This document shows positions 4,895 through 5,239 of a stretch of 19,896 nt of DNA, piece after piece. The position numbers and the translations under genes were made by a program. The notes beneath the pieces were generated by a model. It was not told where the DNA came from and searched no databases. It saw nothing but the letters and a program-made list of their open reading frames with translations. Position 1 is the stretch's first letter. Each line of letters begins with the position of its first letter. This stretch comes from Candidatus Caldarchaeales archaeon (GTDB lineage Archaea; Thermoproteota; Nitrososphaeria_A; Caldarchaeales; Calditenuaceae): contig JAVVGN010000035.1 of the NCBI GenBank assembly GCA_032249095.1, positions 1 through 19,896 on the forward strand. The letters are read 5' to 3'.

Positions 4895-5239
4895 GTCTTT
4901 ATCTAGTATGGCCATGTTAGCATGTGGAACCTCTCCACCATCCCACTCCATCCACATCACCCGTATTCGAATAGGAACCCTCCACCGGCCCCACATATAA
5001 GGAGTAGTGGCCCCAATAATCGGGCCATCACCAACCCGGCCTCACTATGCTCAAGCAGAAGTAAGGGAATAGAGAGGGAGATAAGCCTCATTAAGAAGGA
5101 GAAATCTAAACTAAGACACATACTAGGCATAGAACACGGAAACATATCGATACAGTTGGATTTGTTGGGCAATGAGGTCATATTCAGGGGAAAAGGACAG
5201 ACAACACTACACGGATACCCAAGGCTAGACATAGGATAG
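4895..5239 (+). repeat. Repeat family copy 2 (directly upstream of the IS110-like gene)
   Basis: 4977-5225 is base-for-base identical to 6801-7049. The left part (4895-4976) aligns with copy 1 and partly with copy 3. Confidence 0.92.
4922..5239 (+). CDS. Repeat-encoded small ORF (only copy with an uninterrupted ATG-to-stop frame); function unknown, and it may instead start at ATG 5047 with recoding
   Basis: The C-terminal 55-60 codons (KGIEREISLIKKEKSKLRHILGIEHGNISIQLDLLGNEVIFRGKGQTTLHGY) are conserved at protein level against copy 1, with many synonymous changes. The N-terminal 45 codons are Pro/Ser/Asn-rich and do not look coding. The 4922 ATG frame is not preserved in copies 1 and 3. Confidence 0.3.
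   Translation: MWNLSTIPLHPHHPYSNRNPPPAPHIRSSGPNNRAITNPASLCSSRSKGIEREISLIKKEKSKLRHILGIEHGNISIQLDLLGNEVIFRGKGQTTLHGYPRLDIG

Follow-up and report, generated by a model that had tools for sequence, protein, structure and literature searches.

Three probable relics of a modular mobile element in a Caldarchaeales contig, and the unannotated gene family orfY to which their coding part belongs

Three repeat copies in the window

The stretch of DNA analyzed here, hereafter the window, comprises 19,896 nucleotides (nt) of contig JAVVGN010000035.1 from a Candidatus Caldarchaeales archaeon (assembly GCA_032249095.1). Its genes are mostly cellular, encoding among others a phosphonate ABC transporter, a triosephosphate isomerase, a GH127 glycosidase, and a malate synthase, and no tRNA gene was found in it. 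The window contains three copies of a repeat of approximately 300 nt, namely copy 1 (about 667-1066), copy 2 (about 4876-5239), and copy 3 (about 6757-7057). These repeats very probably represent, in decayed form, one end of a modular mobile element, and their coding part is in all likelihood a relic of an unannotated gene that is named orfY here. Copies 2 and 3 share 100% identity across 252 nt (4977-5228 and 6801-7052), and copy 1 is 75-89% identical to them, depending on the block compared. Copy 3 has no nuclease or recombinase gene attached, and a triosephosphate isomerase gene lies upstream of it. The positions of all features are collected in Table 1.

The original prediction for these repeats described a sequence that evolves like a protein-coding gene without a clean open reading frame (ORF) in any copy, and offered two explanations, a small basic protein made by +1 recoding at a stop codon or the decaying remains of a gene that purifying selection had once maintained. 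Most of its observations were recovered in our alignments. ATG triplets are present at 809, 5047, and 6871, and TAA-GGG occurs at 896-898, 5062-5064, and 6886-6888; the indels of 72 nt, 3 nt, and 1 nt (near 918) and the homologous stop positions of copies 1 and 3 are also real, and the antisense ORFs are interrupted in copy 1. The described third-position bias is genuine, with 14 of the 24 differences between copies 1 and 2 falling on codon position 3 in the last ungapped block (16 of 32 when all three blocks are considered). The absence of a clean ORF from every copy could not be upheld, because positions 4922-5239 of copy 2 form an uninterrupted, ATG-initiated ORF of 105 amino acids (aa) in the conserved frame, which was called as a gene by the Joint Genome Institute (JGI).

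Table 1. Positions of the repeat copies, associated genes, and other features in the window
Feature	Position	Strand	Basis or remark
LAGLIDADG endonuclease gene	1..663	-	Open through the window edge; Pfam PF14528, E = 2.5e-14
Copy 1, segments A and B (orfX remnant and shared intergenic region)	667..821	.	Direct repeats; alignments
Copy 1, orfY relic	810..1066	+	tblastn: 810-932 (frame 3, with stop) and 926-1054 (frame 2); alignments
C-rich terminal motif CCAACCCCCCACTCTTTCC, approximate element end	3873..3894	-	Common to both element types
Structured non-coding RNA candidate	3895..4042	-	Minimum free energy -66.6 kcal/mol, z = -6.1; alignments A6 and A7
tnp-like gene, TasR/IS110-like, pseudogene in the window	4043..4870	-	Intact relatives of 281-285 aa
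Copy 2, segment A, last ~17 codons of orfX (..ARPYEIKT)	4876..4939	-	Direct repeat; segments A and B separated by an intact 145-aa orfX in other loci
Copy 2, segment B, shared intergenic region	4936..5062	.	blastn of 4876-5062 against 80 loci; DNA alignment with full-length and element-borne versions
Copy 2, ORF of 105 aa	4922..5239	+	ORF list; JGI gene call; tblastn with the family consensus matches 5063-5224 only
Copy 3, solo fragment (part of segment B and orfY relic)	6757..7057	+	Identical to copy 2 over 6801-7052

The orfY family and its single reading frame

A search with the conserved 58-aa peptide of the repeat retrieved 70 protein clusters, the best of them at an E-value of 2e-23, and the majority are clean ORFs of 95-100 aa with the consensus M..NILLYLTESAKELLPGYIKTSKGLILPREIYYTLTNIKGIEKEIGVVKKEKSKLRHILGIEHGNIPIQLDLWGNEVIFRGKGQTTLYGYPRPEA. 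Judged by sequence homology, the conserved peptide is the C-terminal half of this unannotated family. Nearly all matches are labeled "hypothetical protein" and derive from hot-spring-type metagenomes, and the few NCBI entries belong to metagenome-assembled genomes of Candidatus Caldarchaeales. We confirmed 225 orfY loci in metagenome contigs, and the GTDB representative genomes contain a single locus, in an uncultured Nitrososphaeria archaeon. The 80 best-scoring of the 225 loci were fetched for comparison, a choice that biases counts of intact versus broken genes towards intact copies. Even the 81 distinct orfY copies in this set include 14 with in-frame stops and 8 with frameshifts, next to 47 that are intact over the C-terminal domain (C-domain); decay is common in the family.

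The 45 distinct stop-free copies can be read through the TAA-GGG position in a single frame, and both alternative frames, including the upstream frame that begins with the ATG, contain stops in 45 of 45. The median ratio of nonsynonymous to synonymous substitution rates (dN/dS) in these copies is 0.17 overall, with values of 0.29 upstream of the site (27 codons, 14-40) and 0.12 downstream of it (52 codons, 41-92), in the same frame on both sides. TAA-GGG represents ATT-AAG-GGN (I-K-G) read out of frame: the commonest codons at the site are ATT AAG GGC (16 copies), followed by GTT AAG GGC in 6 copies and variants such as ATA AAA GGA, and some clades have no TAA-GGG at all (e.g., ATG GAT GGA). 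In the same way, CACT ATG CTC AAG corresponds to CAC-TAT-GCT-CAA (H-Y-A-Q) in the ancestral frame. The out-of-frame ATG is missing from most family members, and relatives at loci L033, L038, and L067 read ..GVVAPIVGPSLTWTHYAQAELSPKYIKTS.. in one frame, which shows the H-Y-A-Q residues. We found no two-frame conservation on either side of the site in the 45 intact copies, and no conserved shift site with a conserved upstream start codon across the family. The conservation that the original prediction saw resume in the +1 frame at TAA-GGG is genuine, but both sides belong to one continuous ancestral frame and no shift is involved; likewise, its "conserved ATG" exists in all three copies as part of a histidine-tyrosine-alanine string and not as a start codon.

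Each of the window copies carries lesions that can be named. Copy 1 keeps 72 nt that encode (Y-to-stop)IKTSKGLILPREIYYTLTN in the family frame, and what had been taken as an insertion in this copy consists of retained ancestral codons that copies 2 and 3 have deleted. The lesions of copy 1 are a TAT-to-TAA change at 834-836, which closes the +1 frame as originally described, a 1-nt deletion after CTCAAG (at about 817), and a second 1-nt deletion near 918; in tblastn this copy falls into two frames and shows an internal stop. The 72 nt are absent from copies 2 and 3, for which tblastn recovers only consensus residues 41-95. No in-frame ATG, GTG, or TTG precedes the TTG at 5156 in copy 2 or at 6980 in copy 3, except for a non-conserved ATG at 4922 in copy 2, and copy 3 has the in-frame TAA that had been located at 6797-6799. 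An older in-frame internal deletion of approximately 65 codons was already present in the subclade ancestral to all three copies. Intact homologues and identifiable lesions, two marks of a pseudogene, are both found for the window copies, and these relics are presumably not expressed.

The open frame extends far upstream in many loci, giving a full-length orfY of 197-205 aa, and the short element-borne forms have about 100-155 aa. Full-length members contain a conserved N-terminal domain (AYLTDKRLKIR...VRISLN...WNKHYWAI.Y) that is missing from all three window copies. Searches of Pfam, NCBIfam, PADLOC, and PDB sequences gave no match to orfY. AlphaFold modeling of the 96-aa C-domain alone reached a predicted local distance difference test (pLDDT) score of 52 and was unusable, and the model of full-length orfY (26 sequences) had pLDDT values of 75-90 in the N-terminal domain and below 50 in the C-domain, so no fold, including the RuvC/DEDD-like or AbrB-like hairpin that the original prediction had weakly recognized by eye, can be assigned to the part of orfY found in the window. 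The best Foldseek matches of the full-length model in the PDB were VAL1, VRN1, LEC2, FUS3, and the N-terminal domain of LlaJI.R1, with E-values of 0.06-0.35 (none at or below 0.001) and TM scores of about 0.4, which gives a lead, rather than a result, that the N-terminal domain may be a DNA-binding pseudobarrel of the B3/EcoRII-N type.

Full-length orfY closes a long block of genes that all point in one direction (L084 1138-10594, contig Ga0078972_1010119; L005 1-3291). The block includes genes for PCNA and a superfamily-2 helicase and many ORFans, has a ribonucleotide reductase gene at the edge, and resembles an integrated virus or plasmid. The full-length gene was identified in at least eight different right-hand flanks.

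A modular element with two alternative genes and a structured RNA

Caldarchaeales-like archaea harbor a modular mobile element in many copies, in which orfY takes the terminal position and its end always falls at the element boundary. Next to orfY is a shared intergenic region, beyond which the other strand carries an optional orfX and then one of two alternative genes, encoding either a LAGLIDADG endonuclease or a RuvC-plus-Nop protein related to TasR and IS110 that is accompanied by a single structured RNA. Sequence conservation stops approximately 10-25 nt past the orfY stop codon (approximately 100 nt in a subset) and gives way to dozens of different flanks, and the C-rich motif AACCCCTCCCCCACTCTTTCC is found at the far end of both element types.

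The optional orfX encodes about 145 aa on the opposite strand, with the C-terminus ..ERFHIVARPYEIKT, and separates the nuclease or recombinase gene from the intergenic region. The orfX gene is intact in many loci (on the minus strand, for example, at L013 1356-1790, L018 1050-1484, L039 2120-2554, and L057 1146-1580), is mostly deleted in the window copies, and is also deleted in many other loci; no match to it was obtained in Pfam, NCBIfam, or PADLOC. The orfX-less form of the element has itself spread. What is left of orfX is segment A, which spans 667-744 in copy 1 and in copy 2 now forms part of the 5′ leader of the tnp-like (recombinase-like) gene. Segment B carries a TATA-like ATATAA at 4995-5000 and the out-of-frame ATG at 5047, and its right half is a diverged remnant of orfY coding sequence (..VVAPIIGPSPTRPHYAQAE); it may serve as a promoter. 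Beyond segment A, the minus strand is occupied by the tnp-like gene in copy 2 and by the LAGLIDADG gene in copy 1.

The LAGLIDADG gene on the left of copy 1 fills the slot that the tnp-like gene holds in copy 2, and the same is true in about 18 other loci. Its match to PF14528 covers two stretches with a score of 53.7 (cut-off 22.5 bits). By eye this neighbor had been considered a second tnp-like gene (KLYNDV..), a candidate that was negative in tblastn. In ten loci (L025, L032, L035, L043, L045, L047, L048, L065, L072, and L083), the far end of the LAGLIDADG-type element adjoins the 3′ end of a tRNA gene, and ARAGORN called five tRNA species in six of them (Arg, Thr, Met, Asn, and Ala), which suggests integration beside tRNA genes that is independent of any one tRNA sequence. 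A sequence resembling an intron-containing tRNA was seen by eye in L025, L045, L047, and L048, where ARAGORN made no call.

About 35 of the 80 loci have the tnp-like gene upstream of orfY and on the other strand. In the window, a 1-nt frameshift near 4320 splits it into two ORFs (4262-4870 and 3979-4341) and its stop codon is lost, so that the window's own module of tnp-like gene and RNA is decayed. The family is large, comprising 685 clusters at 90% identity, and narrow, with only 184 matches among 1.84 billion representatives. Direct searches of Pfam, NCBIfam, PADLOC, and the PDB gave no match to the tnp-like protein, and PDB searches with a single protein or a close-family profile returned only coiled-coil noise (the N-terminal helix of RF2). 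We therefore used a broader profile (A5), built from the tnp-like family and distant relatives found at E-values of 1e-32 to 1e-6. Its sole match among solved structures was 9MTY, over residues 80-258 with E = 6.3e-8, spanning the K-x-D-E-N-D motif. The TIGR-Tas paper cites 9MTY and describes the cryo-electron microscopy structure of TasR from a Thermoproteota archaeon (PMC12045711), and because of this citation 9MTY is taken here as TaTasR; TasR is an RNA-guided nuclease. The tnp-like family is related to TasR by transitive homology, and along the same route through A5 and 9MTY an N-terminal RuvC-like and a C-terminal Nop-type domain are identified in it.

With regard to the DEDD catalytic tetrad of IS110/IS1111, residues D6, D48, and D93 are invariant among 24 members of the tnp-like family, as are H8, D32, D43, and H54, and the window clade has A, T, or S where relatives carry the first D of K-S-D-E-N-D. 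The Pfam models PF01548 and PF02371 gave no match at E-values up to 10 for the window tnp-like protein and its close relatives. PF01548, the IS110 DEDD domain, weakly matches four of the 28 sequences scanned (E = 0.0098 or weaker), all but one of which are distant relatives.

Directly after the stop codon of the tnp-like gene lies a conserved structured segment of approximately 150 nt, which occurs in two subfamilies of the same architecture. Nested closing stems lead to an internal loop and a conserved central hairpin, and each of the two strands of the internal loop has about 15 nt with a core that is hypervariable between copies. The motifs that flank these cores are repeated on both sides of the hairpin, as ..UGA-[var]-UUAACG.. 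in the main type and as ..GGCU-[var]-UAAUC.. in the window type. In the larger alignment A7, 97.9% of cells are paired, compared with 34-45% when the partners are slid, and three compensatory pairs are present. Besides the window, the candidate was found in 20 loci (L005, L013, L015, L019, L023, L027, L029, L039, L041, L050, L055, L057, L061, L063, L068, L070, L071, L073, L077, and L082). There is one unit per gene, with no tandem array or tandem repeats beside the tnp-like gene, and no second internal loop in the conserved RNA, the rest of the element not having been searched exhaustively. Rfam gave no match for the whole window at gathering thresholds or for positions 3600-5300 at permissive E-values.

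We compared the loop strands with the DNA flanking the elements. With element ends placed approximately, the both-flank score averages 17.1 for a copy against its own flanks and 16.2 against those of other copies (Mann-Whitney p = 0.02), and 3 of 14 self comparisons and 1 of 118 cross comparisons reach at least 19 of 24. The best fits are those of L015 (12 of 12 beside the element end) and L013 (10 of 10 at one junction and 9 of 11 near the other), together with L023 and L041; several copies have no loop-flank match. Taken alone, exact 8-mers shared by loop strands and flanks are no more frequent than expected by chance, and the signal appears only in the self-versus-cross comparison. These data are suggestive, not proof, that the loop strands are related to their own flanks. 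The RNA looks like a dual-spacer guide and may function as one, either of the tigRNA type or of the bridge-RNA loop type.

We considered whether the tnp-like element represents an insertion into full-length orfY at codon 38. Locus L041 (tnp-like type, 1448-2064) and locus L030 (full-length orfY type, 2809-3425) have the same right flank, with homology that begins sharply at this codon, as such an insertion would produce. However, the expected 5′ part of orfY was never found past the other element end, and in the window clade the homology between element-borne and full-length versions runs upstream through the TATA-like region without a sharp break. The flank shared by L041 and L030 contains a near-palindrome (GTCCAAATCTTTATGATTTGAC), both halves of which match a loop strand of L041. 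At L070 (197-473) and L071 (2377-2653), the guide-like RNA adjoins segment A and the tnp-like gene is deleted; this derivative looks like a non-autonomous form that retains both ends.

Competing explanations and comparison with known systems

The relic explanation given as one of two possibilities in the original prediction is correct, because the orfY family is intact in a single frame and under purifying selection and the window copies carry lesions. The lineages of copy 1 and of copies 2 and 3 very probably split while orfY was still under such selection, which would account for their mostly synonymous differences. Copy 1 was disabled by the Tyr-to-stop change and two 1-nt deletions, and copies 2 and 3, which have no usable start, by the 72-nt deletion on top of the older internal deletion. 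Protein-like evolution would in this way be inherited from a functional ancestor, so no frameshift mechanism is needed. Several points weigh against this explanation. The ATG ORF of copy 2 is intact, and a 105-aa product is conceivable from its sequence. The identity of copies 2 and 3 over 252 nt indicates recent duplication or gene conversion, and it could also reflect a fragment that is still useful in cis as a promoter or element end. Furthermore, the proportion of intact and broken genes comes from the best 80 of 225 loci and is skewed to intact ones, and the element ends are placed approximately and the mechanism of mobility is one that we infer.

The best-surviving alternative, which we nevertheless regard as unlikely, is that the repeat is kept mainly as a cis-acting DNA or RNA element, combining a bidirectional promoter with a recombination or homing end whose terminus lies inside the coding relic. 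The 3′ end of orfY forms the edge of conservation in dozens of contexts, segment B is conserved and its TATA-like box points towards the nuclease or recombinase gene, copies 2 and 3 share an identical stretch of 252 nt, and both orfX-less forms and one form lacking the tnp-like gene (L070/L071) have spread, all of which would fit such a role. On the other hand, the 3′ parts of copies 1 and 2 differ mostly synonymously with no sign of extra constraint at the DNA level, and the genes that should accompany the repeat in the window are themselves broken in copy 2 and missing from copy 3. This alternative is compatible with the relic explanation and does not exclude it.

It is highly improbable that the 105-aa ORF is a genuine gene of copy 2, even though it is uninterrupted from its ATG, was called by the JGI on its metagenome contig of the window (3300005853, Ga0079997_114741), and has an identical protein on four contigs from at least two samples. 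Its homology to orfY is confined to 5063-5228 (approximately residues 41-94 of the 97-aa C-domain consensus), and the first 47 codons translate the shared intergenic region in a frame other than the ancestral one. These 47 N-terminal residues show no conservation at the protein level, and the stretch is conserved as DNA because it serves both as the intergenic region common to the elements and as the 5′ leader of the gene on the other strand. In copy 3 a TAA at 6797 closes this frame, in copy 1 the frame is out of register, and about 24 residues that every intact relative conserves are missing from the ORF. The gene call is probably fortuitous.

Programmed +1 recoding, by which an MLKQK leader starting at ATG 5047 or 6871 would shift at TAA-GGG into a basic protein of about 63 aa, can practically be dismissed: each window copy does keep both the ATG and TAA-GGG, and copies 2 and 3 have an open +1 frame after the site, but the site and the ATG are in-frame I-K-G and H-Y-A codons of single-frame relatives, TAA-GGG is not conserved family-wide, the form with the 72-nt deletion was seen only on this contig and its duplicates, and copy 1 would require stop readthrough and a -1 shift where copy 2 would require a +1 shift.

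With the recoding candidate removed, the finding itself is ordinary, consisting of broken copies of a mobile-element gene whose family happens to be unannotated. It illustrates a general trap, in which a view limited to broken copies can make ordinary conserved codons, read in the wrong frame, pass for a conserved ATG and a conserved stop. It also exposes a high-copy, unannotated element family in hot-spring Caldarchaeales, with a terminal gene that has no match in any curated library. The main interest lies in the combination of a TasR/IS110-like gene with a single RNA bearing two variable strands, and in its interchange with a LAGLIDADG gene. We tentatively consider it possible that copy 2 is part of an undescribed archaeal mobile element whose mobility or maintenance gene encodes a TasR/IS110-like RuvC-plus-Nop protein that is programmed by one dual-spacer RNA encoded just downstream. 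The two hypervariable loop strands of each copy would then specify the DNA around its own insertion site. Such a module, if functionally interchangeable with a LAGLIDADG endonuclease, would point to RNA-guided homing or integration and might be intermediate between TIGR-Tas arrays and the two-loop bridge RNA of IS110.

Among known systems, bacterial +1 frameshifting of the prfB type resembles the window copies in having an open +1 frame beyond the stop codon of a short upstream ORF. Unlike prfB, the orfY family has neither two-frame conservation nor a conserved start, the site consists of ordinary I-K-G codons, and the copies are mutually inconsistent. The repeats are closer to pseudogenized or truncated genes of mobile elements, such as solo ends and non-autonomous derivatives, with which they share multiple copies in many genomic contexts, the coexistence of intact and broken copies, the loss of internal genes by deletion, and substitutions whose pattern goes back to a functional ancestor; they differ from known cases in that orfY, orfX, and the element as a whole are unannotated, without sequence matches in Pfam, NCBIfam, PADLOC, or the PDB. 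The neighbor of copy 1 resembles free-standing LAGLIDADG homing endonuclease genes in its two LAGLIDADG motifs and mobile context, whereas it occupies the slot of an RNA-guided-type gene and belongs to elements that adjoin the 3′ ends of several tRNA genes.

Similar to IS110 and IS1111, the element is present in multiple copies and encodes a putative recombinase with RuvC-like and Nop-like domains, and its structured RNA contains candidate internal-loop guides, is located 3′ of the gene as in IS1111, and has loop strands that on average score somewhat higher against their own flanks than against those of other copies. In contrast to IS110/IS1111 bridge RNAs, one internal loop was found instead of separate target and donor loops; moreover, the protein has no direct match to Pfam IS110 models, IS621 was not among the PDB matches, and the element carries the extra genes orfX and orfY. 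With TIGR-Tas, it shares a profile relationship between the tnp-like family and TasR (RuvC, coiled-coil, and Nop domains) and an adjacent, dual-spacer-like RNA in which two short variable segments have the same conserved flanking motifs around a central hairpin. It differs from TIGR-Tas in having a single unit closed by long stems instead of a tandem array, in the location of the module in a dispersed multi-copy element, and in the absence of one acidic residue of the K-x-D-x-x-D motif in the window clade. An evolutionary series linking TIGR-Tas, IS110, and box C/D (Nop5) systems has been proposed and discussed (PMC12045711; bioRxiv 10.1101/2024.06.21.599552). If the RNA is a guide, the module would represent a thermophilic archaeal RNA-guided DNA-targeting system with a minimal, one-unit guide and would bear on this series.

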